A stretch of DNA of 39,019 nucleotides from an uncultured Planctomycetaceae bacterium (GCA_964585335.1 CAZPED010000001.1:1-39019), one strand, 5' to 3'. Positions 269-23,853 are shown, counted from the stretch's first letter. Notes: generated from the letters alone by a model not told the origin. Numbers and translations are program-made.

Positions 269-284
269 TGGCGCGGCGTTTGCA
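269..284 (+). promoter_or_regulatory. candidate sigma-54 (-24/-12) promoter, TGGCGCGGCGTTTGCA
   Basis: GG at 270-271 and GC at 282-283 are separated by exactly 10 nt, and the -12 element is TTGCA. The box lies 50 nt upstream of the ATG at 334. Confidence 0.45.
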
Positions 285-333
285 ATTTACCAGCGGCACC
301 CTGTTCTGATCACTCAGTCCGGAGACCGCCACG

Positions 334-543
334 ATGATTGCCTCTCAGCGCAGCACGACTCGTTCCAAGACCTCGCCCGACCGCGTCGACCCTTCCCCCG
401 CGATGATTCGCCGCCGGGCCGCCGCCATCCAACGCCAGTGGAGCCAGCATACGCGGATCAAGCGAGCGGGCGGGGCGGAAGACTTTCGGGCAGTGATCGA
501 ACTGCCCTCGCAACCGAGTCGGCGCGGTTTTAGCGTCGAGTAG
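334..543 (+). CDS. small basic hypothetical protein (69 aa) with I-x-R-R-x3-I-x3-W-[ST]-x3-R-x2-R motif
   Basis: GGAGA lies about 10 nt upstream of the ATG, and third-position GC is high by eye. It shares a motif with the ORF at 18710-18904, and both follow a sigma-54-like box. The internal ATG at 403 is an alternative start. Confidence 0.4.
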   Translation: MIASQRSTTRSKTSPDRVDPSPAMIRRRAAAIQRQWSQHTRIKRAGGAEDFRAVIELPSQPSRRGFSVE

Positions 544-567
544 TCCGCCAGTTCTCAACGAAAGGAC

Positions 568-1098
568 ATGGCCATGCAACGCCCAGATCAGGCCAATTTA
601 CCGATTCGCGTTGGTGTCTTCGACTCGGTCCAAGAGGCCGACGCCGCCGTCGCCGAACTGCTGGCCGCGGGCTTCACCCAGGACGAAATCACGGTGATTT
701 GCTCGCGCGAAGCGGTCCAAAAGCATTTCGCCCGCTTCGAACACCAGGACCCCGCGGGAGCGCATACGCCAGCCGCGGTGGCCACGGGCGGAGCCATTGG
801 CGCGACCCTGGGCGGGCTGGCCGTGTTGGCGGGTGCCGCCACCGTGGGCGGCGCCGTGCTGTTGGTTGCCGGAGGCTTGGCGCTGTGGACCGGCGGAGTC
901 GTCGGCGGTTTGGTCGGAGCCATGATGACCCGCGGCGTCGAGAAGGAACTTGCCAACTATTACGACCAGGCCGTCTCGCAAGGTCGGGTGCTCGTGGCCG
1001 TCGAAGAGACCGCCACGGACCGCAAGCAACTGCTCGCGCGGGCCGAGACCATCCTGGCGTCACACGGCGTAGATCCGCTACCGCTGCCGGAAGCCTGA
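568..1098 (+). CDS. YflT-like general stress protein with central glycine-zipper transmembrane segment
   Basis: The N-terminus RVGVFDSVQEADAAVAELLAAGFTQDEITVI and the C-terminus YYDQAVSQGRVLVAVE resemble the repeated YflT/DUF1269-type stress domain. A Gly/Ala-rich hydrophobic core lies between them. AAGGA precedes the start. Confidence 0.55.
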   Translation: MAMQRPDQANLPIRVGVFDSVQEADAAVAELLAAGFTQDEITVICSREAVQKHFARFEHQDPAGAHTPAAVATGGAIGATLGGLAVLAGAATVGGAVLLVAGGLALWTGGVVGGLVGAMMTRGVEKELANYYDQAVSQGRVLVAVEETATDRKQLLARAETILASHGVDPLPLPEA

Positions 1099-1206
1099 CC
1101 GCCGCCGTCTTGCACCCGGATTCATCCTGACCACGCTGGGCAAATTGGTGCCAGGGGGATGAATTCGGCTCGAAAAAACCGGGGTGAGCGGCCCTCTCAA
1201 GCCATT

Positions 1207-1222
1207 CGGCACGCGGTCTGCT
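1207..1222 (+). promoter_or_regulatory. candidate sigma-54 promoter, CGGCACGCGGTCTGCT
   Basis: GGCACG is exact at -24. GG (1208-1209) and GC (1220-1221) are 10 nt apart, with TGC at -12. The box lies 54 nt upstream of the ATG at 1276. Confidence 0.5.
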
Positions 1223-1275
1223 CATAACCCAAGTCGCACATCCTGTCTCACACGTCCCATCGAAGGAGTGTCGCT

Positions 1276-1569
1276 ATGAACCTGTTTGCCGAATTAGTGT
1301 TGAGCCCCGGCGGCGTGCTCTCGTGGATCGTCGTAGGCTTGATTGCCGGGTGGCTGGCCGGTCTGACCATGAGCGGCGGCGGCTACGGCATTGTCCGTGA
1401 CATCTTGTTGGGCCTGGCCGGTGCGCTCGTGGGTGGTTTTGTCTCTGGGTTCTTCATTGCTGGCGACGCCGGCTTTTGGGGCAGCCTGGTCATTGCCGCG
1501 CTCGGCGCCTGCCTGTTGATCGGCATTTCGCGGTTGCTCATTCCTGGACATCGCGCGCCGCGACTGTAA
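1276..1569 (+). CDS. GlsB/YeaQ/YmgE family stress-response membrane protein (transglycosylase-associated)
   Basis: 97 aa with a GAAGGAG Shine-Dalgarno. Typical family sequence: WIVVGLIAGWLAG....GGYGIVRDILLGLAGALVGGF. Confidence 0.85.
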   Translation: MNLFAELVLSPGGVLSWIVVGLIAGWLAGLTMSGGGYGIVRDILLGLAGALVGGFVSGFFIAGDAGFWGSLVIAALGACLLIGISRLLIPGHRAPRL

Positions 1570-1620
1570 GCTGGCTGCCAGGCACCCATACCCGAGGTAA
1601 CGCGAGCCGAATTCAAGCTG

Positions 1621-3504
1621 ATGTTCTCGTTTACCAAGCAGACCGCCCAGCGGCGCCTCCCCATTGGCGCTGAGATGCAGCCCGGGGGAGGCGCCCATGT
1701 TCGCGTATGGGCGCCGCGTTGCCGCCGAGTTGCCTGCGTGCTGCCGCACGCCGACGTGGCAGTGGAGCTCTCCGCCGAAGAGGGCGGCTACCACAGCGGC
1801 CTGGTGCCCGCAGCCAAGGCCGGTCAGCGCTACGGGTTTCGCCTCGACGATCAAGAGCGGCTCTATCCCGACCCTGCCTCGCGCTATCAGCCCGAGGGGC
1901 CACACGGTCTTTCGCAACTGGTCGACCCAGCCAGTTTTGAGTGGCGCGATGGCAACTGGCGGGGCGCCGCCCTGCCCGGCCAGGTGATCTACGAACTGCA
2001 CGTCGGCACGTTCACGCCCGAGGGAACCTGGAGCGCGGCGCTCGTCAAGCTGCCCCACCTGGTGGACCTGGGCATCACGCTGATCGAAGTGATGCCGGTG
2101 GCCGACTTCGCGGGCGGCTTTGGCTGGGGCTACGACGGCGTCAACCTGTTTGCCCCCACCCGGCTATACGGCACACCCGATGACTTTCGCCGGTTCGTGG
2201 AGGCGGCTCACCTGGCGGGCCTGGGTGTGATTCTGGACGTGGTTTACAACCACTTTGGACCGGTGGGCAACTACCTGGGACAGTTCTCGACGCACTATCA
2301 ATCGCAAAAGCATCAGACCGATTGGGGCGACGCCATTAACTACGACGCCGACGAGTGCCACGGCGTCCGCGAGATGATGATCGCCAACGCCGGCTATTGG
2401 ATCGACGAGTTCCACATCGACGGCCTGCGGCTCGACGCCGTGCACGCCATCGTCGACGATTCGCCCGATCACGTTCTGTCGGCCATCGGTCGCCAGGTGC
2501 GCAGTGCTGCGGGCGACCGCCAGACGCTCGTATTTGCCGAGAACGAACAACAGCAAACTCGCTTGCTGCGCGCGGCCGATCAGGGTGGCTACGGCCTCGA
2601 CGCGGCCTGGAACGACGACTTCCACCACGCGGCCCGCGTGGCGATGACCGGACACAACGAGTACTACTACAGCGACTATCAGGGTACGCCGCAGGAATTG
2701 ATTTCGGCCCTGCGCTGGGGCTACTTGTACCAAGGACAGTGGAATCATCGCCAACGGCGTTTTCGCGGCGCGCCGGCGCTCGACCTCGAGGCCCGCCAAT
2801 TCGTCGTCTTTTTGCAGAATCACGATCAGGTGGGGAACTCGCCGCAAGGCAAGCGGTTGCCCGAGCTGACTTCGCCGGGCCGGTATCGCGCGATGACGGC
2901 GCTCTTGCTGCTCTCGCCGGGCACTCCACTGCTCTTTCAGGGACAGGAGTTTGCCGCCAGCGCGCCGTTCGTCTACTTTGCCGACCATGAACCCGACCTG
3001 AGCGCCCTGGTGCGCGAGGGCCGCATGAACGAGCTGCGGCATTTTCGCCGACTGGCCGGCTCGAACGGCCTGGCCCACTTCGACGATCCTTGCGACGGCG
3101 CGACGTTCGAAAAGTGCAAGCTCGACTGGCAAGAGCTCGACGCGCACTGTCAGCACTACGCGCTGCACCGCGATTTGCTGCGACTGCGCCGCGACGATCC
3201 GGTGTTCGCCGCACAGCGTGCCGAGAGGATTCATGGCGCGGTCATCGCCCCCGAGGCCTTCTTGCTGCGCTACCTGGGCGACGATGGCGACGACCGATTG
3301 CTGCTGGTCAACCTGGGTCGCGACCTGGATTGGCGACCGATCACCGAACCGCTGCTGTCGCCGCCGCAGGACAGCGAATGGCAGATTATCTGGTCGAGCG
3401 AAGATCCATGCTACGGCGGACTGGGCACGGCGCCGCTCGACGTGCGCGGCTGGTACTTGCACGGCCATGCCGCCGTGGTGCTGGCAGCCCAGCGGACGAG
3501 CTAG
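1621..3504 (+). CDS. treZ: malto-oligosyltrehalose trehalohydrolase (GH13)
   Basis: Carries RRLPIGAE..HVRVWAP, PDPASRYQPEGPHGLSQLVD, IYELHVGTFTPEGTW and GWGYDGVNLFAP. GH13 regions DVVYNH, GLRLDAVHA, FAENE and QNHDQ are all present. Confidence 0.85.
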   Translation: MFSFTKQTAQRRLPIGAEMQPGGGAHVRVWAPRCRRVACVLPHADVAVELSAEEGGYHSGLVPAAKAGQRYGFRLDDQERLYPDPASRYQPEGPHGLSQLVDPASFEWRDGNWRGAALPGQVIYELHVGTFTPEGTWSAALVKLPHLVDLGITLIEVMPVADFAGGFGWGYDGVNLFAPTRLYGTPDDFRRFVEAAHLAGLGVILDVVYNHFGPVGNYLGQFSTHYQSQKHQTDWGDAINYDADECHGVREMMIANAGYWIDEFHIDGLRLDAVHAIVDDSPDHVLSAIGRQVRSAAGDRQTLVFAENEQQQTRLLRAADQGGYGLDAAWNDDFHHAARVAMTGHNEYYYSDYQGTPQELISALRWGYLYQGQWNHRQRRFRGAPALDLEARQFVVFLQNHDQVGNSPQGKRLPELTSPGRYRAMTALLLLSPGTPLLFQGQEFAASAPFVYFADHEPDLSALVREGRMNELRHFRRLAGSNGLAHFDDPCDGATFEKCKLDWQELDAHCQHYALHRDLLRLRRDDPVFAAQRAERIHGAVIAPEAFLLRYLGDDGDDRLLLVNLGRDLDWRPITEPLLSPPQDSEWQIIWSSEDPCYGGLGTAPLDVRGWYLHGHAAVVLAAQRTS

Positions 3505-3620: not shown

Positions 3621-6600
3621 GTGATGGCGAAATCTGCCTCCCCGACCCGAGTGGACGCCGATGCCGAGGCGGTGCTCGGCGTCGATCCACTCTGGTACAA
3701 AGATGCCGTTATCTATCAGCTGCACGTGCGGTCGTTTCGCGATAGCGACGCTGACGGTATTGGAGATTTTCCGGGGCTGACGCAAAAGCTCGACTACCTG
3801 CAAGACCTCGGCGTCACGGCACTGTGGTTATTGCCGTTCTATCCCTCGCCGCTGCGCGACGATGGCTACGATATTTCGAGCTACACCGAGGTGAACCCCG
3901 CCTACGGCGACCTGCGCGATTTCAAGGCCTTCATACGCGAGGCCCACGCTCGCGGGCTGAGGGTCATCACCGAACTGGTCATCAACCACACCTCGGACCA
4001 GCACCCCTGGTTCCAGCGGGCGCGGCATGCCAAGCCCGGCAGTCCGGAGCGAGACTTCTACGTCTGGAGCGACACGCCCGAGAAGTACGCCGATGCCCGG
4101 ATTATTTTCAAGGACTTCGAGGTTTCGAACTGGGCCTGGGACCCACTGGCCAAAGCCTATTACTGGCATCGATTCTACGCGCATCAGCCCGATTTGAATT
4201 TCGATAACCCGCGCGTGCAAAAAGCCGTGCTCGACGTGCTCGACTACTGGCTGAAGCTGGGCGTCGACGGTTTGCGGCTGGACGCGGTGCCCTACCTGTA
4301 TGAGCGCGAAGGGACGAACTGCGAGAACCTGCCCGAGACACACGGCTTTCTCAAGCAGCTGCGCAGCCATGTCGATCGGTATTTTGCCGGCCGCATGCTG
4401 TTGGCCGAAGCCAACCAGTGGCCCGAGGATGCGATCGCCTATTTCGGCGAAGGCGACGAATGCCACACGGCGTTTCACTTTCCGGTGATGCCGCGACTAT
4501 TCATGGCGATTCACATGGAAGACCGCTTCCCGATTGTCGACATCTTGCAGCAGACTCCGGCCATACCGGCCGACTGCCAATGGCTGATCTTTCTGCGCAA
4601 TCACGATGAATTGACGCTCGAGATGGTCACCGATGAAGAACGCGACTACATGTACCGCGTTTATGCCCGCGACCGCCAGGCGCGCATCAACCTCGGCATT
4701 CGCCGCCGCCTGGCGCCGCTCTTGGGCAACAATCGCCGCAAGATCGAGCTGATGAACGGCCTGCTCTGCTCGCTACCCGGCACGCCGGTCATTTATTACG
4801 GCGACGAGATCGGCATGGGCGACAACATCTACCTGGGCGACCGCCACGGCGTGCGCACGCCGATGCAATGGAGCCCCGACCGCAACGCGGGATTTTCCAG
4901 CGCGAACCCACAGCGGCTGTACTCGCCCGTGATTATCGACTCCGAGTACTTGTTCGAGACAGTGAACGTCGAAACGCAGCAGAAGAATCCCTCGTCGCTG
5001 CTCTGGTGGATGCGGCGGCTGATCGCCTTGCGCCAGCACTACGTGGCCTTGCGCCGCGGCACGCTCGAAGTGCTCTCGCCCGAAAACTCCAAGATCCTGG
5101 CCTTCATCCGCGAACACAGCGATCAATGCGTGCTGATGGTGGCCAACCTCTCGCGGTTCGTGCAGTTCGTCGAGCTGGACCTGAGCCGATTCGCCGGACG
5201 CCGGCCGCTGGAAATCTTCGGCCAGACCGCCTTTCCGGCGATCGGCAAGACGCCCTACGTGCTGACGCTCGCGCCCCACGCGTTTTATTGGTTCGCGCTG
5301 GAAGGCGAAGTAGCGGCCGTGGTGCCGGCCGCGGGCGTCGAGTTGCCGCTCATTAAGGCTGACCCGGCGGCCGACTGGCGGCCGCTACTGCAAGGCCGCC
5401 AGCGGCGGTCGTTCGAGGCCCTGCTGCGACGCGAGCTGCCGCAACGCAACTGGTTCCAGGGCAACGGCCGGCAGATCCAGGCGGTTCATCTATTCGATGC
5501 CGTTCCGCTCGACCGCTCGGAGCCGCACAACCCCTGCCTGACGATTCTCAGGGTCGACTATCTCGAAGGCGAACCCGAGGGCTACCTGTTGCCCCTGTCG
5601 ATCGTCGGCGACGGCCAGGCGGAACCCGCGCCGCTGCCGGGCTCGACGCCGCTGGCGCGGACCCAGAAGGCAGGCGCCAAGGAATCGTCGCTCGTGGTCG
5701 ACGCCGCGTTCGACCCGATCGCCGCGGCGAAGCTGCTCGAGGTGATGGCCGGGCGGCGACGTTTGAAAGGCGCGCACGGCCACCTGATCGGCTGGTCGGA
5801 GCCGGAATTGAACGATCTGGTCGATTCTGGCGCGGAGCTGCGCGCGGCGCCCACGCGGGTCGACGAGCCCGACAGCTACCTGGTCTATGGCGACCGGCTG
5901 CTGCTGACGCTGTATCGGCGGTTGGAAAGCGGCATTCATCCCGACCTGGAGCTGAGCCGTTTTCTTTCGCGTCCCGAGGCTCGCTTTACCCATGCCCCGC
6001 GGCTGCTCGGGGCGCTCGAGTATCGCAGCGAGGCCGACGAAGGCATCACGATCGGCGTGCTGCACGACTATCAGCCCCACTCGGTCGTGGGCTGGCAATT
6101 CGCGCAAGACTCGCTCGCGCGCTTTTGCGAGCAGGTGATGGCCCTGCCGGCCGACGCCCGGCCAGCCACTGACCCTGCCGCGCAATCGTCGCTATGGGAC
6201 CTCGCCGCCGGGCAGGCCCCCTCCCAGGCCAAAGAACTGCTCGGAGGCGTACTCGAGTGGACGGCGCTGCTGGGGCGTCGCACGGGCGAGCTGCATTTGG
6301 CGCTCACGGCCGACCAGGTCGATCCGGCCTTCGCACCCGAACCGTTCACGCAGTTCCACCAGCGTTCGCTTTATCAATCGTCGCGCAAGCTGGCGCTGCA
6401 AACCTTGCAGAAGCTGCGGGCGCGAATCAAGTCGTTGCCGGGCGAGGTCGAAGCGCTCGCGCTCGACGTGCTGGGGCGCGAGCGGCCACTGCTCGACAAG
6501 TTGCGGCAGATCGTCGGCCCCAAAATCGTGGCCACGCGCATTCGCTGCCACGGCAACCTGCACCTGGGCCACGTGCTCTACACGGGCAAGGACTTTATGT

Positions 6601-7007
6601 TCATCGACTTTGGCGGCGAGCCCACGCTGCCGCTTTCTGCCCGCCGCATCAAGCGCAACGCCATCGACGACCTGGCCGGCATGGTCCACTCTTTTCAATA
6701 CGCCGCCTCGCAAATGCTCACGCAGCTGCCCAAGCTGGGCATCACCGCGCCCGACGCCGTGGCCGCCTGGCACAAGGCTTCCCAGTTTTGGGCACTGTGG
6801 AGCGGTTCGGCCTTTTTGCGATCCTATGCCACGACCACGGCCGGCAGCGGGTTGCTGCCCAAGAGCCGCGCGCAGTGGGACCTGCTCTTGCAGTTCTACC
6901 TGCTCGAAGAAGCGATTTACGAGCTGCGCTACAACCTTTCGTCGGCCGCCGACCAGGTGGCGGTGCCCCTGGGACGGATCGCGCAACTGCTCGATGCCAC
7001 GCCGTAG
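3621..7007 (+). CDS. treS: trehalose synthase (maltose alpha-D-glucosyltransferase) fused to maltokinase (Pep2/Mak)
   Basis: The N-terminus DPLWYKDAVIYQLHVRSFRDSDADGIGDF...LLPFYPSPLRDDGYDIS...INHTSDQHPWF is the TreS signature. The roughly 450-aa C-terminal extension has a kinase-like region (HGNLHLGHVL....DFMFIDFGGEP). The track start is GTG at 3621, and ATG follows at 3624. Confidence 0.85.
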   Translation: MMAKSASPTRVDADAEAVLGVDPLWYKDAVIYQLHVRSFRDSDADGIGDFPGLTQKLDYLQDLGVTALWLLPFYPSPLRDDGYDISSYTEVNPAYGDLRDFKAFIREAHARGLRVITELVINHTSDQHPWFQRARHAKPGSPERDFYVWSDTPEKYADARIIFKDFEVSNWAWDPLAKAYYWHRFYAHQPDLNFDNPRVQKAVLDVLDYWLKLGVDGLRLDAVPYLYEREGTNCENLPETHGFLKQLRSHVDRYFAGRMLLAEANQWPEDAIAYFGEGDECHTAFHFPVMPRLFMAIHMEDRFPIVDILQQTPAIPADCQWLIFLRNHDELTLEMVTDEERDYMYRVYARDRQARINLGIRRRLAPLLGNNRRKIELMNGLLCSLPGTPVIYYGDEIGMGDNIYLGDRHGVRTPMQWSPDRNAGFSSANPQRLYSPVIIDSEYLFETVNVETQQKNPSSLLWWMRRLIALRQHYVALRRGTLEVLSPENSKILAFIREHSDQCVLMVANLSRFVQFVELDLSRFAGRRPLEIFGQTAFPAIGKTPYVLTLAPHAFYWFALEGEVAAVVPAAGVELPLIKADPAADWRPLLQGRQRRSFEALLRRELPQRNWFQGNGRQIQAVHLFDAVPLDRSEPHNPCLTILRVDYLEGEPEGYLLPLSIVGDGQAEPAPLPGSTPLARTQKAGAKESSLVVDAAFDPIAAAKLLEVMAGRRRLKGAHGHLIGWSEPELNDLVDSGAELRAAPTRVDEPDSYLVYGDRLLLTLYRRLESGIHPDLELSRFLSRPEARFTHAPRLLGALEYRSEADEGITIGVLHDYQPHSVVGWQFAQDSLARFCEQVMALPADARPATDPAAQSSLWDLAAGQAPSQAKELLGGVLEWTALLGRRTGELHLALTADQVDPAFAPEPFTQFHQRSLYQSSRKLALQTLQKLRARIKSLPGEVEALALDVLGRERPLLDKLRQIVGPKIVATRIRCHGNLHLGHVLYTGKDFMFIDFGGEPTLPLSARRIKRNAIDDLAGMVHSFQYAASQMLTQLPKLGITAPDAVAAWHKASQFWALWSGSAFLRSYATTTAGSGLLPKSRAQWDLLLQFYLLEEAIYELRYNLSSAADQVAVPLGRIAQLLDATP

Positions 7008-7032: not shown

Positions 7033-7035
<3 letters not shown>
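7005..7035. terminator. stop-to-stop inverted repeat TAGCCGGC-N15-GCCGGCTA between convergent treS-mak and glgX
   Basis: A perfect 8-bp inverted repeat. Its left arm begins with the treS-mak TAG (7005-7007). Its right arm ends with the complement of the glgX TAG (7033-7035). No U-tract follows, so terminator function is uncertain. Confidence 0.3.
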
Positions 7036-9180
<2,145 letters not shown>

Positions 9181-12298: not shown

Positions 12299-12314
12299 TG
12301 CAGGTCGCGTGCCA
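12299..12314 (-). promoter_or_regulatory. candidate sigma-54 promoter (minus strand reads TGGCACGCGACCTGCA)
   Basis: The plus-strand text TGCAGGTCGCGTGCCA gives exact TGGCACG at -24 and CTGCA at -12 with GG-N10-GC spacing. The box lies about 140 nt upstream of the treY ATG (12159). Confidence 0.5.
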
Positions 12315-12337: not shown

Positions 12338-12353
12338 CGGCGCGGTTCTTGCA
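12338..12353 (+). promoter_or_regulatory. candidate sigma-54 promoter, CGGCGCGGTTCTTGCA
   Basis: GG at 12339-12340 and GC at 12351-12352 are 10 nt apart, and the -12 element is exact TTGCA. The box lies 50 nt upstream of the ATG at 12404. It is very similar to the box at 269-284. Confidence 0.5.
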
Positions 12354-12403: not shown

Positions 12404-14275
12404 ATGCAGCGCACCACGGGCCGGCGATATCCAATTGGGGCGGAACTGGTCGCAGGCGGTGCACACTTTCGCGTCTGGGCTCCCGACCACGAGCGGGTCG
12501 ATCTGATTTCCGACGCTGGACGGTTGCAACTCGAGCGGCAGGCGGATGGTTATTTCTCGGGGGCGGCCCCGCTGACTGCCGGAGCCGATTACCAGTTTTG
12601 CCTCGACCGCCACGATCAACCATGGCCCGACCCCGCCTCGCGCTTTCAGCCGCAGGGGCCACTGGGCCCCTCGCGACTAGTCGATGGGAGCCGATTTGAC
12701 TGGCGCGACGACCAATGGCGGGGCCTGGGCCCGCACGACCAGGTGCTCTACGAGCTGCACGTGGGCACCTTTACTCGAGAAGGCACCTGGGCCGCCGCGG
12801 CAAAGCAGCTGGCCGGGCTGGCAGAGCTGGGCATCACGGCGCTCGAAATCATGCCGATCGCCGAGTTTCATGGCCGGTTTGGTTGGAGCTACGACGGCGT
12901 TAACCTGTTTGCGCCCAGCCGGCTGTATGGCGCTCCGGACGACCTGCGGCGGTTTGTCGATCAGGCCCATCAACTGGGCATCGGCGTACTACTCGACGTC
13001 GTTTACAACCATTTCAGTCGCCTTGGCGAACGAGTGCTCACGGCATTCTCACGGCATTATCTTTCCGAGCGACACAAGAGCGAATGGGGCGGAGCACCCA
13101 ATTTCGACGCCGCACGGTCAGCGGGCGTCCGCGAGTTCTTCCTGGCCAACGTGGCCTACTGGATCGAGGAGCTCCACTTCGACGGACTGCGAATCGACGC
13201 CACGCAGTCGTTTGCCGATAAGTCGGCCTCGCATATTCTGACCGAACTCTGCCAGACCGCTCGGCGCGCGGCCGGAGCCCGTAGCGTGCTGCTCGTGGGC
13301 GAAAACGAACCGCAACGAGCCGAGCTGCTATGGCCGGCCGATCAGGGCGGCTGTGGGTTTGACGCGCTCTGGAACGACGATTTTCATCACAGCGCCCTGG
13401 TGCGGCTGACGGGCCGCCGCGAGGCCTATTACACCGACTACACGGGTTCGGCCCAGGAGCTGTTGGCCGCCGTGCAATGGGGCTATCTCTACCAGGGGCA
13501 ACGTTACTCCTGGCAGCACAACCCGCGCGGCACACCGGCGATCGACCTCCCCGCCCACCAGTTCGTCAACTTCCTCGAAAACCACGATCAGCTAGCCAAT
13601 TCGCTCACGGGCCAGCGAGTTCACCAGCGGACCAGCCCTGGCCGCTATCGCGCCCTGACCGCCTTGTGGCTTTTGGCGCCGCAAACCCCTCTGTTGTTCC
13701 AGGGCCAGGAGTTCGGCGCCTCGACGCCCTTCCTATACTTCAACGATGCGCCCGCCGACGAAGCCGCGGCGGTGCTTGCCGGGCGGGCACAGTTCATGTC
13801 CCAATTTCGATCCGTGGCGACCGCGACCATGCAAGCCCGTTTACCCAATCCGTGCGACCAGCAGACGTTTGCCTGCTGCCAACTCGACCCGCGGGAGCGT
13901 GACGCGAGGGGGCCGATCTACTTGCTGCATCGCGACTTGCTCCGCTTGCGGCGCGACGACCCCGTGATCGGCCAGCGCGGATCAACCGTGGTCGAAGGCG
14001 GCCAACTGTCCGACGACGCGCTGCTGATTCGCTTTCTGGCCCCCCACGACACGCGGTTGTTGATGGTCAACTTCGCCGCGGAGCTACGGCGCGCTTCCAT
14101 CGCGCATCCGCTTGTCGCGCCGCCGCGCGGTTGCCAATGGCAAACACTTTGGTCTAGCGACGACCCACGTTACGCCGGCCCCGGCAGCGCCGCGCTCTGC
14201 CAGGCCGACGGCTGGGTCGTACCTGGAGAATCGGCCACGCTGCTGGCACCAGTTTCCGAAGAGCATCAGCCATGA
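12404..14275 (+). CDS. treZ: second TreZ-like GH13 glucanohydrolase (paralog of 1621-3504)
   Basis: Colinear with the first TreZ, at roughly half identical residues by eye. Shares RRYPIGAE, PDPASRFQPQGPLGPSRLVD, LYELHVGTFTREGTW, DVVYNH, GENE and ENHDQ. Region II reads GLRIDATQS rather than GLRLDAVHA. Confidence 0.7.
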   Translation: MQRTTGRRYPIGAELVAGGAHFRVWAPDHERVDLISDAGRLQLERQADGYFSGAAPLTAGADYQFCLDRHDQPWPDPASRFQPQGPLGPSRLVDGSRFDWRDDQWRGLGPHDQVLYELHVGTFTREGTWAAAAKQLAGLAELGITALEIMPIAEFHGRFGWSYDGVNLFAPSRLYGAPDDLRRFVDQAHQLGIGVLLDVVYNHFSRLGERVLTAFSRHYLSERHKSEWGGAPNFDAARSAGVREFFLANVAYWIEELHFDGLRIDATQSFADKSASHILTELCQTARRAAGARSVLLVGENEPQRAELLWPADQGGCGFDALWNDDFHHSALVRLTGRREAYYTDYTGSAQELLAAVQWGYLYQGQRYSWQHNPRGTPAIDLPAHQFVNFLENHDQLANSLTGQRVHQRTSPGRYRALTALWLLAPQTPLLFQGQEFGASTPFLYFNDAPADEAAAVLAGRAQFMSQFRSVATATMQARLPNPCDQQTFACCQLDPRERDARGPIYLLHRDLLRLRRDDPVIGQRGSTVVEGGQLSDDALLIRFLAPHDTRLLMVNFAAELRRASIAHPLVAPPRGCQWQTLWSSDDPRYAGPGSAALCQADGWVVPGESATLLAPVSEEHQP

Positions 14276-16302: not shown

Positions 16303-16557
16303 AACCGTCGGTTTTCATTGACCGCGCCGATTCTCTGCGTGGCTTCTTCAGAACCATCGGCGGGGGACCGGCGCGGATCGACTCGCGCTGAGGTCCTCCA
16401 CGCCGATGGATGGTTTCTTGCGATCGGCAATCGAACCTGGCGTCGAGTGGCACAGCAAACAGGATGCCAAGTGCCATGCAAACGGCGGACGCGTTTTCTG
16501 CCTGGCAGTGAGCTAGCCGCGCGCATACGGGCGTGAGAGGCCACAGGCATGCGAGGG

Positions 16558-16573
16558 CGGCACGTGATGTGCA
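16558..16573 (+). promoter_or_regulatory. candidate sigma-54 promoter, CGGCACGTGATGTGCA
   Basis: GGCACG is exact. GG (16559-16560) and GC (16571-16572) are 10 nt apart. The box lies 51 nt upstream of the ATG at 16624. It sits inside the 5' extension of the track ORF that starts at 16549. Confidence 0.45.
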
Positions 16574-16623: not shown

Positions 16624-18156
16624 ATGAAAACGCATGCGCGCGCCTCGACCGAATCGGTCTGGACTTCACAAGCCGTTCCCACTTACGCACCTCTTGGCGA
16701 CGACGTGAACGTCGACGTCTGCGTGGTAGGCGCCGGCATTGCCGGGCTCACCACCGCATATCTCCTGGCCCTGGCTGGCCAGCAAGTGGCCGTGATCGAC
16801 GACGGCGCGGTCGGTTCCGGCCAAACCTCGCGCACCAGCGCGCACCTGGCCAGCGCGATCGACGATCGGTTCGTGGAAATCGAACGGCTCCATGGTCGTC
16901 AGGGTGCCCGGCTGGCCGCCGAAAGCCACGCCATGGCAATCGACCGCATGGAAACCATTTGCCAGCGTGAGGCGATCGATTGCGAATTTCGCCGCGTTGA
17001 TGGGTTTCTGTTCGCCGGCTCCGACCAAGACACCGAGTTGCTCGACCGCGAGCTTAAGGCGGCGCTCGCCACGGGCGTGCTCGAAGTCGAGCGGCTCGAA
17101 CAAATCCCCGGCGTAACCTTTCCGAGCGGCCGCTGCCTGCGGTTTGGCCGCCAGGCGCAGTTTCATCCGCTCAAATACCTTTCCGGGCTTAGCCAGGCGA
17201 TCGTTCGCCAAGGCGGGGCGATCTACTGCCAAACCCGCGCGGCGTCGATCGAAAGCGCCAAGCCGGCCAAAGTTACGACCCGCGGCGGTCCGACCGTCAC
17301 TGCCCAGCACGTCGTCGTGGCGACAAACACGCCAGTCAACGACTTGCTGGCCATTCACTCCAAGCAGGCCTCTTACACCAGCTATGTGATCGGGGCCAGC
17401 ATTCCCTCTGGCAGCGTGCCCGCCGCGCTCTACTGGGATACGGAAGATCCCTATCACTACGTGCGCGTGGAGCCGGGTGGAGCCGAGGGCGGCGCCGGCT
17501 TGCTGTTCGGCGGTGGCGTGGATCATAAGAGGGGTCAGGCCCAGGATTGCCTTCAGCGATTCGGCCGGCTGGAAGTCTGGGCCCGCGCTCGCTTCCCCTG
17601 GCTGAAAGCCGTCGAGTACAGCTGGAACGGCCAGGTCATGGAGACGCTCGACGGGTTGGCATTCATCGGACGCAATCCGCTCGACCAGGGCAACTGCTAC
17701 GTGGCCACGGGCGATTCAGGCATGGGCCTGACCCACGGCACGATCGCCGGCATCATTATCACCGATCTGATTCTCGAGCGCGAAAACCGCTGGGCTCGAC
17801 TGTACGATCCGGCCCGTAAGCCGCTGGGAGCTTTGGGGCGCTTCGCGGTGGAGAACGCCAACGTGATGGCGCAATATGGCGCCTGGTTGTCGCCCGGCGA
17901 AGTCGACTCGGAAGAAGCAATCGCGCCGGGCAGCGGCGCGGTGTTGCGACAGGGATTAACCAAGCTGGCCATCTATCGAGACGATGACGGTCAATTGACC
18001 AGACTGTCGGCCGTGTGCCCACATTTGAAGTGCATCGTAACGTGGAATCCGGCTGGTCGAACCTGGGATTGTCCTTGCCACGGCTCGGCATTCGATTGCC
18101 ACGGCAAAGTGATCAATGGCCCCTCGGCCGCCGACCTGCCCCCCGCCGACCAATAG
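16624..18156 (+). CDS. FAD-dependent oxidoreductase (DAO family) fused to a C-terminal Rieske [2Fe-2S] domain
   Basis: The dinucleotide-binding motif is VCVVGAGIAGLTTAY. The Rieske motifs are CPHLKC...CPCHGSAF. I prefer the start at 16624 (MKTHA) over the track start at 16549 because of the promoter-like box at 16558-16573. Confidence 0.8.
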   Translation: MKTHARASTESVWTSQAVPTYAPLGDDVNVDVCVVGAGIAGLTTAYLLALAGQQVAVIDDGAVGSGQTSRTSAHLASAIDDRFVEIERLHGRQGARLAAESHAMAIDRMETICQREAIDCEFRRVDGFLFAGSDQDTELLDRELKAALATGVLEVERLEQIPGVTFPSGRCLRFGRQAQFHPLKYLSGLSQAIVRQGGAIYCQTRAASIESAKPAKVTTRGGPTVTAQHVVVATNTPVNDLLAIHSKQASYTSYVIGASIPSGSVPAALYWDTEDPYHYVRVEPGGAEGGAGLLFGGGVDHKRGQAQDCLQRFGRLEVWARARFPWLKAVEYSWNGQVMETLDGLAFIGRNPLDQGNCYVATGDSGMGLTHGTIAGIIITDLILERENRWARLYDPARKPLGALGRFAVENANVMAQYGAWLSPGEVDSEEAIAPGSGAVLRQGLTKLAIYRDDDGQLTRLSAVCPHLKCIVTWNPAGRTWDCPCHGSAFDCHGKVINGPSAADLPPADQ

Positions 18157-18201: not shown

Positions 18202-18603
18202 TTACTCTTTCGCGGCCGAAGTCAAGTCGGCCAAAATCTTAAGCAACTGCTGCAGGTCGGCCGGCTTGACAAGGTAATCGTGAAAGCCCGCGTCCTTGGC
18301 CAGTTGCCGATGATCGGGGTCGTCGTGCCCCGTGATGGCGATGCAGCGCGGGGAACGTTGGCCCGCTTCGCTACGAATGATGCGGACGAGCTCGAAACCG
18401 CTGGTGGCCCCGGGGAGCGCCAGGTCCGAGATCACGGCGTCGGGCTTGAACCGTCGCGCCAGATCGAGCGCCGTGTCCCCCTCGTCGGCCGTTTCTACCT
18501 CGTAACCCACACGCGTGAGCAGCGTCCGCAAAATGACCGTAATGTCGCGGCGATCGTCGACGACGAGTACGCGCAGGCCGGGGGCCGCGGGTATTGCATT
18601 CAT
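18202..18603 (-). CDS. single-domain response regulator (CheY-like receiver)
   Basis: Carries RVLVVDD, PDAVISDLALPG, IAITGH and LVKP, which form the canonical Asp pocket, Thr and Lys. There is no output domain. ATG is at 18603, and the track uses an upstream GTG at 18624. Confidence 0.85.
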   Translation of the reverse strand: MNAIPAAPGLRVLVVDDRRDITVILRTLLTRVGYEVETADEGDTALDLARRFKPDAVISDLALPGATSGFELVRIIRSEAGQRSPRCIAITGHDDPDHRQLAKDAGFHDYLVKPADLQQLLKILADLTSAAKE

Positions 18604-18709
18604 GGGGCGCTCAACTGCGGGCACGGGTTTGCCATTGCAATCAGCGCATCATCTCATGGCCGCGTGGCTGAAACAAGCCAATTTGACTGGCGACCGCTGC
18701 TCTTCCCTA

Positions 18710-18904
18710 TTAGTAGCAAAGCTTGCTCGACATGTCGTCGCTTCCGCTGACCAGGGCCCACAGCGCATCGCGACGCCACTGGGCCTCGCGACGGCGTTGC
18801 TGGCGTTCCAGCGGCGTCCACGAATCGCGAATTCTGGTACTGCGCCGTTCAATCTGGCGCCGCGAGAGCATTTCGTCGGAACGCGTGGTTTGATGAACAG
18901 GCAT
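18710..18904 (-). CDS. small basic hypothetical protein (64 aa), paralog-like of 334-543
   Basis: GAGGAG lies 9 nt upstream of the ATG. The motif QIERRSTRIRDSWTPLERQQRR aligns with MIRRRAAAIQRQWSQHTRIKRA of the 334-543 ORF. It lies downstream of a consensus sigma-54 box and upstream of the receiver gene. Confidence 0.45.
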   Translation of the reverse strand: MPVHQTTRSDEMLSRRQIERRSTRIRDSWTPLERQQRRREAQWRRDALWALVSGSDDMSSKLCY

Positions 18905-18985: not shown

Positions 18986-19001
18986 AGCAAAGAGCGTGCC
19001 A
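18986..19001 (-). promoter_or_regulatory. candidate sigma-54 promoter (minus strand reads TGGCACGCTCTTTGCT)
   Basis: A perfect match to TGGCACG-N4-TTGCT. The box lies 82 nt upstream of the ATG at 18904. Confidence 0.6.
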
Positions 19002-19198: not shown

Positions 19199-19214
19199 TG
19201 GCACGCCACATGCA
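19199..19214 (+). promoter_or_regulatory. candidate sigma-54 promoter, TGGCACGCCACATGCA
   Basis: TGGCACG is exact. GG (19200-19201) and GC (19212-19213) are 10 nt apart. The box lies 79 nt upstream of the ATG at 19293. Confidence 0.5.
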
Positions 19215-19292
19215 TAGGGCTGGCTGACGCACTTCGGCCGAACTTTGTCGCTCTTTAAACTCATCGCCTTCGACGAAAGGGAGGATGCCAGC

Positions 19293-19466
19293 ATGTTGTA
19301 CTGGGCTGCCGTATTCCTTGTGATCGCGCTGGTGGCCATGGTGCTGGGTTTCAGCAGCGTGGCGGCTAGCGCGGCGGGGATCGCCAAAATCTTGTTCTTC
19401 GTGTTTCTCGTGCTGTTCGTTGTCAGCCTGGTTTTTGGCGGCTTGCGCCGCGGACCGGCCCCCTAA
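19293..19466 (+). CDS. DUF1328 (UPF0391) small membrane protein
   Basis: [47 protein letters not shown] is the family signature. GGGAGG lies 7-8 nt upstream. The track ORF starts earlier, at 19245. Confidence 0.85.
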
Positions 19467-19515: not shown

Positions 19516-20010
19516 ATGCGATATTTCGTCACGTCATTGTCGTTGGCCTGCTGCCTGGCCGCCGCGCCCGCGATGGCCGCCGACGCACCGGCCGGTACCC
19601 CCAAAACGAACGCCAACGCCAACAATCGCATCCTGGTCGCCAAGGCGTTTCGCACGAGCAAGCTCACAGGCCTAAACGTGCGTAATAGCCAAGGCGAAAA
19701 GCTGGGCACTGTGAACGATCTGGTCGTCAACATTGAAACCGGCAAGATCGCCTACGTGGCCTTGTCGTACGGCGGCGTACTGGGCATCGGCGACAAGCTG
19801 TTCGCCGTGCCGTTCTCGCAGCTGAAGTTCGACCACGGCAAGGACGAGATGTTCTTTGTGCTGGACATGCCCAAGGAAAAGCTCCAGGCGGCCCCCGGCT
19901 TCGATCAGAGCGATTGGCCGAACTTTGCCGACCCCACCTGGTCGGAGAAGATCGACAACTACTACCGCCGTGCTCAGACCACGACCGGCAGCAAGGAAGT
20001 GGCGAGGTAG
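19516..20010 (+). CDS. secreted PRC-barrel domain protein
   Basis: The signal peptide is MRYFVTSLSLACCLAAAPAMA. The PRC-barrel core is LTGLNVRNSQGEKLGTVNDLVVNIETGKIAYVALSYGGVLGIGDKLFAVPF. AAGGAGAG serves as the Shine-Dalgarno. Confidence 0.8.
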   Translation: MRYFVTSLSLACCLAAAPAMAADAPAGTPKTNANANNRILVAKAFRTSKLTGLNVRNSQGEKLGTVNDLVVNIETGKIAYVALSYGGVLGIGDKLFAVPFSQLKFDHGKDEMFFVLDMPKEKLQAAPGFDQSDWPNFADPTWSEKIDNYYRRAQTTTGSKEVAR

Positions 20011-20054
20011 CAAGCTCGTTGCCAAGTCGCGCACCCAACGCCTCCAGTAGCGCG

Positions 20055-20078
20055 GAAAAAAGCATCCCGCGGGATGCT
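20055..20078 (-). terminator. intrinsic terminator downstream of the hybrid kinase gene
   Basis: The minus strand reads AGCATCCCGCGGGATGCT, a perfect 18-nt palindrome, followed by TTTTT. It lies 24-47 nt after the kinase stop codon (20102-20104). Confidence 0.6.
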
Positions 20079-20101
20079 CCGCGACTGGGGGCGGTTGTGT
20101 T

Positions 20102-22546
20102 TCAGCCGGCGGCCGGCCTCCGATGCGGCGCTAGCCCCTGTTGCAGCCGCGCAATCTCGCGCTCGAGGTCATCCAACCCTGCGGCCGCCTCGTCGAGTTG
20201 CTTGTCGCGACCGGCCTTTTCCACGCGGGCTGCTGCCCGCACGGCGTCGTGGGCGTCGAAGTTGGCCACCAGCCCTTTCAAACTGTGGGCTGAGCGCGTG
20301 ACGGCTTCCGGGTCTCCGTTGGCCAGTCCTGCGCGGACTTGGTCGAGCAGTGCAGGCGAGTCTTCGAAGAAGAACTCGATGAGCGTGGCCAGAAAGCCCC
20401 GGTCGTCGCCCAGCCGCGCCAGCGCGGCTTCGAGGTCAAAGATGCGTTGGGCAGCCATGGCAGAGGGCGCCTTTGCTTGAGGTAACTGGTCGGCAGCCCC
20501 GGCAGCGTCATCGCTGCTCCATTTCTCCACCGCTTCAATCAGTCGCGCGCCATCGACGGGCTTCGACAGGTAGGCGTCCATGCCCACGGCCAGGCAGCGC
20601 TCGCGGTCGCCGGGCATGGCATGCGCGGTCAGCGCCACAATTGGCACCCTTTGTCCCAGCTGCGCTTCCAGCGAACGAATGGCCACGGCCGCCTGCAACC
20701 CGTCCATGACCGGCATCTGTACGTCCATCAGAATGATATCAAATGGATGCCGGCGGATCATGTCGACCACCTCCCGCCCATTTCGGGCAACCTCAACCGC
20801 ATGGCCTCGCCGAGAGAGAATGCGCTGGACGATCTTCTGGTTCACCACCGTGTCTTCGGCCAGCAAAACTTGCAAGCGGCGGGGCGCCGCGTACATGACC
20901 GTTGCGGGCGGCTCTGCGGCCGTGCTGGCCGGCGTCGCAAGGCCCCACGCATCGCACAACGCCCGCCAGGTGCTGCGCCGGCCGACCGGCTTTTCCAGAT
21001 AAACGACCGGACGATGCGCGCTGGCGGTCGTCGGCGCCGCGCCCAAAGCCCGCGGAATGATCAGCGGAACGTCGGACGGCTGCGCGGCCAGCCACTCGGC
21101 CAGGCTTGCGCCTTGCGGGCCTGGCACCGAGGCATCGACCACGAGCAGATCGTGGCTCTGCCCGGTATCGCTCAGTTGGGCAATTAGTTTCTCACCGCTG
21201 ACGGTCGCGTCGAGGACCGTGGCTCGCAATTTCCAGCTCGTCAGCAGTTCGGCCAGAATGCTGCCCGAGGTGGCCTGCGGATCGAGGATCAGCACGCGGC
21301 GACCGGCCATTTGTTCAGCGCCAGGCCGTTTGCTGTCGGCGTGGTCGGCAGGCCGCGACTCCAATTGCAACGTCAACCGCACCAGAAAGGTGCTGCCAGA
21401 GCGCGGCCGGCTGTCGACCGAGAGCGTGCCGCCCATCAGGCGCACCAGCTTTTGCGCAATGGCCAGTCCCAGGCCGGTGCCGCCATGCCGCCGCGAGCTG
21501 GACGAATCGACTTGCGTGAACGGCTCGAATATTCTCGGCTGGTCTTCTTCGGCAATGCCGATTCCGGTATCGGAGACCGAGAACAGCAGCACGACCTCTT
21601 GCGCCGCGAGGCTTTCGACGTCGACCCTGAGCACGACTTCGCCCCGCTGGCTGAATTTCAGTGCATTGTTGAGCAGATTGGTCAGCACTTGCCGCAATCG
21701 CGGGGCATCGCCGCGGATGCGGTCGGGCACGCCGGCCGCCAGGGCATAGCTCAGCTCCAAGCCCTTCTCCACCGCCACGGCACAAAACGGCCTGATCGTC
21801 CCTTCCAGCAACTGTTCGAGGTCAAACGGATTGGCGTCGAGCGTGAAGCTGCCCGACTCCAGCTTCGAGTAGTCGAGAATGTCGTTGACCAGCCGTACCA
21901 GCACCTCGGCCGAGCCTTTGGCGATTTGCAGATACTCTCGCACCGCTGCCGGCGGATCCTCGTCGAGCGCCAGCTCGGTCATGCCGATGATGCCGTACAT
22001 TGGCGTGCGCAGCTCATGGCTGACGTTGGCCAGAAAATCTCCCTTGGCCCGGTCGGCGGCCTCGGCATATTGCCGTGCGCGGCGCAAGTGCTCTTGCGCG
22101 GTGCGGCGCGCGTCGTCTTCTTGCAAGGCTAACAGCCAGCCTTGCTGATCAAGCGGCACCCATTGCAAGGTCACGTGGCGGTACAACCCGCTGGGCTGGT
22201 GCCATAATCGCAAGTAGCACCGGCTTGCCGTCCGCTTGGCGGTCGCGGTGGTACAGGCGGTGGCCAGTGCCGGCCGATCGAACGTATGCACCGCGTTCGT
22301 CCAGCCCTGCCCGTTGCAATCAGACCAGTTTTGACCGGTGAAGGTCTCCCAGAACGGCTGGTGTTCGACGAAACTCCAATCGTCGTGACAGCGGCACACC
22401 ATGTCGCAGGCGGCGCTCGTCAGCAGGCGCAACTCGGCATCCGACAAGCCCGTGGCGAAACGAGTCAGCGGCCCGGGCTCCCCATCGATGCGCAGCCGCT
22501 CGGCAGGCTGATCGCGACGAGCGGCCGAATCGCGTGGGGATTGCAT
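20102..22546 (-). CDS. soluble hybrid sensor histidine kinase: PAS-like, HisKA, HATPase_c, degenerate receiver, receiver, Hpt
   Basis: The H-box is [13 protein letters not shown] and the G-boxes are DTGIGI...[10 protein letters not shown] degenerate REC (RRVLILDP...LLVVDAS) is followed by a canonical REC ([29 protein letters not shown]). A C-terminal Hpt carries SAHSLKG. No transmembrane segments are visible. The first ATG is at 22546, and the track extends to a TTG at 22666 through an Arg-rich stretch. Confidence 0.85.
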
Positions 22547-22768: not shown

Positions 22769-22784
22769 TGCACATCGCATGCCA
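22769..22784 (-). promoter_or_regulatory. candidate sigma-54 promoter (minus strand reads TGGCATGCGATGTGCA)
   Basis: GG-N10-GC spacing. The -12 half, GATGTGCA, is identical to the box at 16558-16573. The box is upstream of the hybrid kinase, about 100 nt from the TTG at 22666 and about 220 nt from the ATG at 22546. Confidence 0.4.
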
Positions 22785-22972
22785 AGGGGCCAGGCTGTCG
22801 CTTTCCTGGAGCAAGCCGCTACCCCTCAAGTACTTAGGATAGGCCATCGGCTTAGCGGCCGTCTCTTCGCCTGGTCAAAAACCTGCCGCGTCGGTCAGCC
22901 GCCAGCCACGGCACGCAGGCCCTGCAAGAACGGTGGCCTAAAAGATGGCCGAATTCGGCGACCCGCCAACCG

Positions 22973-22988
22973 TGGCACGAAGTTTGCC
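22973..22988 (+). promoter_or_regulatory. candidate sigma-54 promoter, TGGCACGAAGTTTGCC
   Basis: TGGCACG and TTGC are both exact. GG (22974-22975) and GC (22986-22987) are 10 nt apart. The box lies in the long intergenic region upstream of the lipoprotein gene at 23257. Confidence 0.55.
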
Positions 22989-22998
22989 TTAAGCGGGC

Positions 22999-23073
22999 TC
23001 TCGCTGAAACGCGGCCGAGTCGCTGAGTCGCCCCGGTGTTATGGGGACGGCTCAGCACTCAGCGGGAGCGAGA
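22999..23073 (+). other. 75-nt imperfect extended hairpin at the predicted start of the 22973 promoter transcript
   Basis: Nested complementary arms: TCTCGCT(22999-23005)/AGCGAGA(23067-23073), GAGT/ACTC, GCTGAG/CTCAGC and CCCC/GGGG, around the loop GGTGTTAT. No credible ORF covers it. Confidence 0.4.
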
Positions 23074-23256
23074 TCACCTCACGCTTCCGAGCTCGGCCGG
23101 CCGAGTCGGTTTCAACCTGTTCCGTCGGCGCTAGAGGTGCGCGCCGCAGGAAGACAGGGTGACGACCGTAACGCAACTTTGCTCCGCGATATCCGAGCTT
23201 CGACAGACGTTCTGCTCGACGATCGGAATCGCGTACTCACGCCGAGGAACTTAACC

Positions 23257-23454
23257 ATGAAACGCTTCGCCGTCGTTTGCTCACTGTTGGCCCTGACCTT
23301 CCCCGCGATCGTTGGCTGCGAGAAGAAAGCTAAGACCGAACATCAAGAAACGGTTAGCGGCCCCGGCGGCAAGACGACCACCACCGATACGCACACCGTC
23401 GAATCGTCTGGCCAGAATCCGCCGGCCAATACCCAGGGCGAAACCGCCAAGTAG
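23257..23454 (+). CDS. small lipoprotein (65 aa)
   Basis: The signal plus lipobox is MKRFAVVCSLLALTFPAIVGC. The mature part is Thr/Gly/Pro-rich and low in complexity. GAGGAA serves as the Shine-Dalgarno. Confidence 0.7.
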   Translation: MKRFAVVCSLLALTFPAIVGCEKKAKTEHQETVSGPGGKTTTTDTHTVESSGQNPPANTQGETAK

Positions 23455-23580
23455 CGGCAAGGCGTCCAAGTGCCTTGCTCGGGTGTCGTGCTGGCCTCGA
23501 ACGCCACCAGGTCAGGCCAGCACGGCCCCGCGGCAAGGCCGAGGCCACTCGACGGCTCGTCACGAGCGAAAGGAACTGTC

Positions 23581-23733
23581 ATGGGTACCATCTTATTGAT
23601 CATTTTGATTTTGTTGTTGCTGGGGGCCGTTCCCGCCTGGCCGTACAGCCGCAACTGGGGCTATTACCCCAGCGGCGGGTTGGGCTTGGTGGTGGTCATT
23701 CTCATCGTGCTGTTGCTGATGGGCCGCATTTGA
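23581..23733 (+). CDS. DUF3309 family small membrane protein
   Basis: MGTILLIILILLLLGAVPAWPYSRNWGYYPSGGLGLVVVILIVLLLMGRI matches the family signature over its full length. AAGGAA serves as the Shine-Dalgarno. Confidence 0.85.
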   Translation: MGTILLIILILLLLGAVPAWPYSRNWGYYPSGGLGLVVVILIVLLLMGRI

Positions 23734-23837
23734 CGGACGCACTGCCTTGGCCGCGCGGCGACCATGCTGGTCGGCGCCGGCGCTGCCCGAGGGCCTTGGG
23801 TAGTGGCCATGTGCTCATGCAGCGAACCAATTGCCGA

Positions 23838-23853
23838 CGGCACACTTTTTGCC
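23838..23853 (+). promoter_or_regulatory. candidate sigma-54 promoter, CGGCACACTTTTTGCC
   Basis: GGCAC and TTGC are both exact. GG (23839-23840) and GC (23851-23852) are 10 nt apart. The box lies 45 nt upstream of the ATG at 23899. Confidence 0.5.

Follow-up and report, generated by a model that had tools for sequence, protein, structure and literature searches.

Predicted sigma-54 promoter boxes upstream of trehalose and stress transcription units in an uncultured Planctomycetaceae bacterium

Introduction

General stress regulons are governed by sigma-B in Bacillus, by RpoS in Enterobacteria and by EcfG/PhyR in Alphaproteobacteria, and beyond Proteobacteria and Firmicutes no controller of the general stress response is known to us. 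Here we analysed a 39,019-nucleotide (nt) stretch of DNA from an uncultured Planctomycetaceae bacterium (GCA_964585335.1 CAZPED010000001.1:1-39019; hereafter the window), which spans a complete contig with a G+C content of 64%. An original prediction, made from the sequence alone, had placed sigma-54-type promoter boxes in front of nearly every trehalose and stress transcription unit between positions 269 and 23,853 and had read these units as one RpoN regulon. Like the sigma-B, RpoS and EcfG regulons, the set described below consists of many small scattered units, each with its own copy of one promoter motif; unlike them, it carries a motif of the sigma-54 type, which requires an ATP-dependent activator, so that control would be exerted through phosphorylation of the activator and not through availability of a sigma-70-family factor or partner switching.

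A described mechanism of the same kind is NtrB/NtrC control, for example of enterobacterial glnAp2. The two have in common a -24/-12 promoter of the form GG-N10-GC, an activator built from REC, AAA+ and HTH_8 domains with a GAFTGA-type loop, and a regulator operon autoregulated from its own sigma-54 promoter, which in our case is a predicted box. They differ in that the candidate sensor here is a hybrid HK-REC-Hpt protein and not NtrB, that the activator forms a separate subfamily, that the targets are trehalose and stress genes rather than those of nitrogen assimilation, and that no enhancer sites were found in the upstream regions searched here.

Trehalose genes and sigma-54 have been met together in Myxococcus xanthus, in which spore formation is accompanied by joint up-regulation of rpoN, genes for bacterial enhancer-binding proteins (bEBPs), treY, treS and otsAB (PMC2875238). 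The sigma-54/bEBP (Nla) cascades of that organism resemble our system in this trehalose link, and a Polyangiales locus (L064, below) has boxes before DAO-Rieske and Ku genes, whereas the M. xanthus study (PMC2875238) reports no direct sigma-54 promoters on trehalose genes, and the programme there is developmental rather than a compact stress island. Among Pirellulales, R. baltica has an expressed rpoN (RB6491; PMC2754498), and Studholme and Dixon (2004, as cited in PMC2754498) described Pirellulales rpoN, several bEBPs and predicted sigma-54 promoters for Pirellula sp. strain 1, one such promoter being linked to the stress-induced thioredoxin RB10378; in the account that the citing paper gives of their study, neither trehalose genes nor a general-stress island is linked to these promoters. 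A comparative survey of sigma-54 functions from 2011 mentions neither trehalose nor Planctomycetes (PMC3162934), and our literature search returned no earlier report of trehalose or general-stress genes forming a sigma-54 regulon, and none linking such genes to sigma-54 in Planctomycetes. The mechanism appears to be of the known sigma-54/bEBP kind, while the content of the regulon and its dedicated regulator appear to be undescribed.

Results

Eleven intergenic boxes with sigma-54 geometry

The reference sigma-54 consensus is TGGCACG-N4-TTGCW. All ten 16-mers of the original prediction were present in the window, but its list had overlooked an additional strong box at 16454-16469 on the minus strand. 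The eleven sites, scored with a generic sigma-54 weight matrix (frequencies after the compilation of Barrios et al.), are given below with the units that they precede.

269..284 (+), TGGCGCGGCGTTTGCA, 14.6 bits: 69-aa small open reading frame (ORF; 334-543) and YflT-like gene (568-1098)
1207..1222 (+), CGGCACGCGGTCTGCT, 13.1 bits: GlsB/Transgly_assoc (1276-1569), treZ (1621-3504) and treS-mak (3621-7007)
12299..12314 (-), TGGCACGCGACCTGCA, 16.3 bits: treY (9238-12159) and glgX (7033-9180)
12338..12353 (+), CGGCGCGGTTCTTGCA, 11.5 bits: treZ2 (12404-14275) and GH133/GDE (14272-16302)
16454..16469 (-), TGGCATCCTGTTTGCT, 15.2 bits: the additional box
16558..16573 (+), CGGCACGTGATGTGCA, 12.3 bits: FAD-oxidoreductase/Rieske gene (about 16651-18156)
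18986..19001 (-), TGGCACGCTCTTTGCT, 18.6 bits, the best match: 64-aa small ORF (18710-18904) and single-domain receiver (18202-18624)
19199..19214 (+), TGGCACGCCACATGCA, 16.2 bits: DUF1328 (about 19290-19466) and PRC-barrel (19516-20010)
22769..22784 (-), TGGCATGCGATGTGCA, 14.9 bits: hybrid kinase, about 222 nt upstream of its ATG
22973..22988 (+), TGGCACGAAGTTTGCC, 15.7 bits: lipoprotein (23251-23454) and DUF3309 (23578-23733)
23838..23853 (+), CGGCACACTTTTTGCC, 12.2 bits: CsbD-DUF883 (23896-24423), hyp149, hyp60, holin-X-like, hyp65 and AI-2E transporter (25726-27648)

The three minus-strand boxes at 12299-12314, 18986-19001 and 22769-22784 had originally been quoted by their right-hand ends. 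The predicted counts of GGCAC (seven of the ten boxes) and of TGC (all ten) were correct, and each of the ten points the same way as a gene whose start codon follows after 44-262 nt. The distance of about 222 nt to the kinase ATG was likewise confirmed, but the range of 45-140 nt claimed for the others fails for box 22973, which is separated by about 260 nt from the start of the lipoprotein gene (MKRF..., 23251). The invariant GG and GC are exactly 10 nt apart in 11 of 11 window sites and in all 34 sites compiled from Pirellulales, and of the 12 intergenic matches scoring at least 11.5 bits, 10 face a start codon no more than about 260 nt away. The boxes of treZ2 (CGGCGCGGTTCTTGCA) and treY (TGGCACGCGACCTGCA) stand back-to-back with a 23-bp gap. 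The matrix scan detected no box in the 51- and 116-nt gaps inside the GlsB-treZ-treS-mak unit, as had been predicted.

Enrichment of the motif between genes

With 11% of the window counted as intergenic (21 regions), the motif was compared with chance in several ways. The string GGCAC-N6-TGC occurs 10 times in the window versus 3.0 +/- 1.9 times in dinucleotide shuffles, none of 100 shuffles reaching 10, and seven of the ten matches are intergenic (Fisher p = 1.4e-5); the longer GGCACG-N5-TGC is intergenic in six of six matches (p = 1.5e-6). For the core GGC[AG][CT]-N6-TGC, 13 matches were intergenic, where its coding-sequence density would predict 1.7 (Poisson p = 2.8e-8), an expectation that bears out the earlier estimate of about one core by chance. 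When TGGCACG-N4-TTGCA was searched with at most one mismatch, the five matches were all intergenic and correctly oriented. At 14.5 bits or more the weight matrix matched seven intergenic sites and no coding site (p = 1.6e-7), the coding maximum being 13.8 bits; neither coding sequence nor the wrong strand holds matrix matches at an equal density.

The motif was also recovered without a prior: expectation maximisation (EM) over all 21 intergenic regions returned TGGCACGCnnTnTGCn with an information content (IC) of 16.8 versus a null maximum of 15.9, picking nine of the ten originally listed boxes together with 16454(-). Column counts over the 34 Pirellulales sites gave the consensus yGGCACG-N4-(t)TGCA. 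Flanking columns are unconserved across these sites, and the boxes are therefore not copies of a repeat element, a possibility that was considered and ruled out.

One match inside a gene, TGGCCCGCGAGCTGCA at 8099-8114 (-) in glgX, is kept in frame in all relatives and reaches 16.4 bits in L161; it reflects a conserved peptide and illustrates how coding constraint can produce a false positive.

Conservation at orthologous positions

Exact-protein look-ups with YflT and hyp124 of the window gave no match, probably owing to differently placed start codons. A TreY search gave Pirellulales metagenome-assembled genomes (MAGs) as the nearest relatives, and eight syntenic Pirellulales loci (L161-L168; 50-72% protein identity) were reached via TreY, kinase and bEBP homologues. 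In these loci the orthologues have kept their upstream boxes, and operon-internal and control units have none. Within the boxes the -24 and -12 elements are preserved, in contrast to the diverged spacers and flanks. The orthologous boxes are as follows, with one further site from L004, a Pirellulaceae MAG.

treY: L162 9732, L163 9730, L164 6598 and L166 5774, with diverged spacers
treZ2: variant CGGCGC-N5-TTGCA in L162, L163 and L164, 39-63 nt from the start
treZ2 in L166: 5735(-), back-to-back with the treY box; the called treZ2 start (5843) lies upstream of the box
GlsB: L162 20836(-), L166 17022(-) and L168 5613(-)
Small ORF/YflT: GGCGC variant CGGCGCGGCATTTGCA at L163 21765(-), L164 18620(-) and in L162
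CsbD: L161 9508(-) (17.9 bits, 48-51 nt), L165 9476(-) and L004 3064(+)
DUF1328: L165 15446(-), L167 8544(+) and L168 8920(+)
Hybrid kinase: L167 13328(-), 221 nt upstream (222 nt in the window), and L165 9638(+), 348 nt upstream
Small ORF/REC: L165 15756(+), before homologous small ORF and REC genes

In L162 and L166, where it was measured, the interval of about 23 bp between the back-to-back treZ2 and treY boxes is retained. In L163 only 28 nt remain between YflT and GlsB, and the GlsB box is missing; loss of the box where the intergenic gap collapses is as expected of a promoter. A divergent box opposite the kinase box, L167 13544(+), is equivalent to 22973 by position. Scanned with the same matrix, the relatives have no boxes before their operon-internal genes (YflT, treZ, treS-mak, glgX, GDE and the genes after CsbD).

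Nor do the MarR, MBL, DUF1501, PSCyt and GNAT units of the relatives have boxes by this matrix, which agrees with the original statement that such units lack one in the window. That statement had nevertheless overlooked a weak candidate, AGGTATCGCAGTTGCA at 34701-34716 (+), which scores 10.7 bits and is followed after 56 nt by the likely GNAT start (ATG 34772); it has no counterpart in front of the L161 orthologue and is probably due to chance.

A candidate activator and its kinase in syntenic islands

No AAA+ enhancer-binding protein had been recognised in the window, and an ORF scan for the GAFTGA-type loop was negative there. ORFs with an RpoN box were also absent from the Pirellulales loci examined. 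Between the kinase and PRC genes, however, the island of L165 encodes a REC-Sigma54_activat-HTH_8 protein of 487 aa, with the Walker A motif GESGTGKE, the sigma-54 contact loop ESELFGHEKGSFTGA (GSFTGA, of the GAFTGA type) and a C-terminal HTH_8 domain. Orthologues of this bEBP form a distinct group with 71-100% identity, clearly above a plateau of about 60% formed by generic NtrC paralogues. Its operon stands beside the CsbD operon and the hybrid kinase in L165; the order DUF1328-PRC-bEBP adjoins the kinase and CsbD operon in L167; and in L168 the bEBP operon directly adjoins GlsB-treZ-treS/mak. In all three loci the DUF1328 box precedes the bEBP operon, and in L165 an additional one stands 137 nt ahead of the bEBP gene.

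The bEBP of the relatives (P0148) scored 477.8 bits against the NtrC equivalog TIGR01818, whose cut-off is 558.6, and was also below the NCBIfam cut-offs for AtoC, PrsR, ZraR, NtrX and all other equivalogs. As it falls below every curated equivalog cut-off, it represents a distinct NtrC-family subfamily. The closest solved structures in the PDB are Aquifex NtrC1 and NtrC4, and from its domains and these matches P0148 belongs to the NtrC family only in a broad sense.

The candidate sensor for this bEBP is the hybrid histidine kinase of the window:

20102..22546 (-): HisKA-HATPase-REC-Hpt hybrid histidine kinase (Pfam)

By NCBIfam it is of BarA/TorS type, below all cut-offs. An orthologous kinase adjoins the bEBP in L165 and L167. 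Metagenome contigs scanned with the hybrid kinase yielded only generic kinases at about 40% identity and no orthologues.

The gap between the PRC and kinase genes (20011-20101) contains the palindromic GGCAACGAGCTTGCT, which is terminator-like rather than promoter-like. A site in this gap, 20009(-), was considered as a remnant of a bEBP promoter and rejected, being on the wrong strand and palindromic, and more likely terminator-like.

Proposed mechanism and alternative explanations

We put at roughly 75% the probability that the boxes are functional sigma-54 (RpoN) -24/-12 promoters opened by an NtrC-family regulator, and that the units behind them form a trehalose/general-stress or desiccation-type regulon. 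The sigma-54 reading originally proposed is supported by the density of matrix matches, by conservation at orthologues and by the NtrC-family bEBP in syntenic islands. In the mechanism that we infer, RNA polymerase with sigma-54 would bind each box and wait there as a closed complex until an NtrC-family response regulator (REC-AAA+-HTH_8), putatively of the P0148 type and in this genome encoded off the contig, opens the promoter by ATP hydrolysis. Upon an inducing signal, presumably perceived by the hybrid kinase (20102-22546), the regulator would most likely be phosphorylated through the Hpt domain of that kinase, and the single-domain receiver (18202-18624) may serve as a branch or sink. Kinase, receiver and, in relatives, bEBP carry boxes of their own, which would create positive feedback. 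The metabolic output would be the conversion of alpha-glucan to trehalose via TreY/TreZ, TreS-Mak, GlgX and GDE, and the remaining output would comprise a group of small membrane and stress proteins, namely YflT, GlsB, DUF1328, PRC, DUF3309, CsbD-DUF883 and AI-2E, and the FAD/Rieske oxidoreductase.

Several observations weigh against this mechanism. Neither an rpoN nor a bEBP gene is present on this complete 39-kb contig, and the slot between the convergent PRC and kinase genes (20011-20101), which holds the bEBP gene in L165 and L167, is only 92 nt long here, so that the bEBP gene must lie elsewhere in that genome. treY of the rearranged locus L161 has no box detectable with the same matrix. 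Under salt stress, rpoN of R. baltica was down-regulated while treS was induced (PMC2754498), a response that neither contradicts nor supports the proposal. Boxes 1207, 12338, 16558 and 23838 (11.5-13.1 bits) each lie within the coding background (maximum 13.8 bits) and are supported by position, orientation and conservation, not by score. That four of the ten score no better than the best coding matches, and that coding constraint can mimic the motif as in glgX, would also suit chance combined with hand-picking of GC-rich intergenic 16-mers; yet this explanation is effectively refuted by the shuffle, Fisher and Poisson tests, by the prior-free de novo recovery, and by conservation at orthologous positions where negative controls stay negative, and we regard its probability as negligible. 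It is also very improbable that the motif is read by another transcription factor, or by a sigma factor with a -24/-12-like site: boxes 22973 and 23838 are partly palindromic (GGCA-N8-TGCC), but most boxes are not, and their orientation always follows the downstream gene. Moreover, the invariant GG-N10-GC spacing with TGGCACG and TTGCA halves is the sigma-54 signature, a gene for a sigma-54-dependent activator lies inside the island in relatives, and ECF-type promoters differ in architecture, having two elements about 16-17 nt apart.

A further point against a single regulator came from the search for its binding sites. Despite the HTH_8 domain of the candidate bEBP, no shared upstream enhancer motif emerged among 10-32 promoters from k-mers with one mismatch, exact dyads, or EM with and without box masking, all run with shuffled controls. 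Unmasked EM rediscovered only the sigma-54 box, since each of two divergent promoters falls within the upstream region of the other; with the boxes masked, one EM motif of width 20 exceeded the null (IC 13.07 vs 11.42) and is explicable by the shared ancestry of orthologous leaders. This result leaves room for a different account, in which the sigma-54 promoters are real but several bEBPs with their own signals each activate a subset, making the island a mosaic rather than one regulon. Such an account would fit the two box subtypes, GGCGC and GGCAC, each of which is kept gene by gene, as well as the many bEBPs that Planctomycetes encode, several proteins on the 60% plateau of NtrC paralogues being named from Pirellulales or Planctomycetaceae. 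Against it, relatives keep the units grouped with one and the same bEBP/kinase pair, also where the gene order has been rearranged (L165, L167 and L168), and no syntenic locus contains a second bEBP. We consider the mosaic unlikely, although it deserves some weight, and favour control of the boxes by sigma-54 with one NtrC-family regulator.

Gene content of the window

The gene labels of the original prediction were all correct by Pfam. The window encodes YflT-like and GlsB/Transgly_assoc proteins, two TreZ paralogues, TreS-Mak, GlgX, TreY and a GH133 debranching enzyme, followed by the DAO-Rieske oxidoreductase, the single-domain receiver, DUF1328, PRC-barrel and the HisKA-HATPase-REC-Hpt hybrid kinase, then by DUF3309, CsbD-DUF883 and the AI-2E transporter, and finally by sulfatase, MBL, MarR, DUF1501, PSCyt2/PSD1 and GNAT genes. 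Stress-type families identified by Pfam and NCBIfam are CsbD, YflT, Transgly_assoc, DUF1328, DUF883, PRC, DUF3309, the C-terminus of Ku and the trehalose enzymes. We take CsbD, YflT, GlsB/YmgE-type, DUF1328, DUF883/ElaB-type, DUF892/YciE, GSP26-type and Ku proteins and trehalose synthesis to be typical of sigma-B, RpoS and EcfG regulons.

The partial ORF 3-218 (+) at the start of the contig is the C-terminus of Ku (TIGR02772, E = 1e-5), a protein of non-homologous end joining. Beyond the box-rich region lies the gene for a second GlsB/YmgE-type protein (35924-36298 (-); PRK10457, E = 1e-12), which is without an upstream box.

Boxes beyond Pirellulales

A scan of genome contigs with the DAO-Rieske gene met no close relative of the source genome but yielded orthologues from 77 testable loci of many phyla, and the 250 nt upstream of each were scored at a threshold of at least 12 bits. 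Sense boxes were found in 17 of the 77, versus an antisense box in one of 77 and a rate of 1.1% in random segments of the same loci (binomial p = 9e-18). The positives include Gemmataceae, Acidobacteriota, Gemmatimonadota, Polyangiales, Bdellovibrionota and Bacteroidota. Boxes in such loci also precede DUF892/YciE, GSP26-like, Ku and CsbD genes: the Pirellulaceae MAG L004 has nine boxes in 17 kb, before DUF892/YciE, CsbD-DUF883, a glycine-zipper protein and others; the acidobacterial MAG L048 has seven, one of them before a GSP26-type PNPOx-like gene; and the Polyangiales MAG L064 has boxes before DAO-Rieske and before a full Ku gene (L064 15622).

In a Chitinophagaceae MAG (L059, about 12772 (-)), a gene for a bEBP with GAFTGA lies directly downstream of a DAO-Rieske orthologue that has a box 75 nt upstream. 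Judged by this arrangement, L059 would represent an independent bEBP linkage in Bacteroidota.

A broader proposal, which we offer tentatively and hold to be rather less probable than its negation, is that sigma-54, one NtrC-family regulator and a hybrid-kinase phosphorelay act as the master switch of the general stress or desiccation response of Pirellulales, and perhaps likewise in Acidobacteriota, Gemmatimonadota, Myxococcota and some Bacteroidota lacking RpoS, SigB and EcfG. If it were true, it would add a fourth, activator-gated paradigm to the bacterial general stress response. For Pirellulales, the answer offered here to the question of the controller consists of a defined promoter motif, a target set and candidate regulators (a P0148-type bEBP and the hybrid kinase), and would extend the list of sigma-54-linked processes by trehalose synthesis and general stress. 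In the annotation of MAGs, the promoter model could be used to predict co-regulated stress genes now labelled "hypothetical".

Small ORFs and other elements near the boxes

The gene directly following several of the boxes is a small ORF of 64-87 aa, and these small ORFs are conserved at the protein level in relatives:

334-543 (+): small ORF of the window, before the YflT-like gene
18710-18904 (-): small ORF of the window, before the receiver
L162 21662-21865: small ORF
L163 21480-21683: small ORF
L165 about 15830-16010: small ORF
L004 8519-8782: small ORF

They share the motif I-x2-R-x3-I-[QR]-x2-W-[ST]-x3-R-x2-R and had no match in Pfam or NCBIfam; they appear to constitute a family of uncharacterised small proteins associated with this regulon.

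The additional box 16454(-) stands back-to-back with the DAO-Rieske box at a distance of 88 bp. No ORF was found downstream of it, and an Rfam search of the window gave zero matches. The 153 nt downstream of it (16442-16290), which extend into the GDE gene at its 3' end, have an unusually stable predicted fold (z = -3.8), and the box may be the promoter of a sigma-54-dependent small RNA or antisense RNA.

In the 5' leader of treY, between its box and start (about 12175-12235, minus strand), lies a conserved block that includes the palindrome CGACCATGATGGTCG. The block persists in L162-L164 amid an otherwise diverged leader, and could act as an operator or form a structure in the leader.

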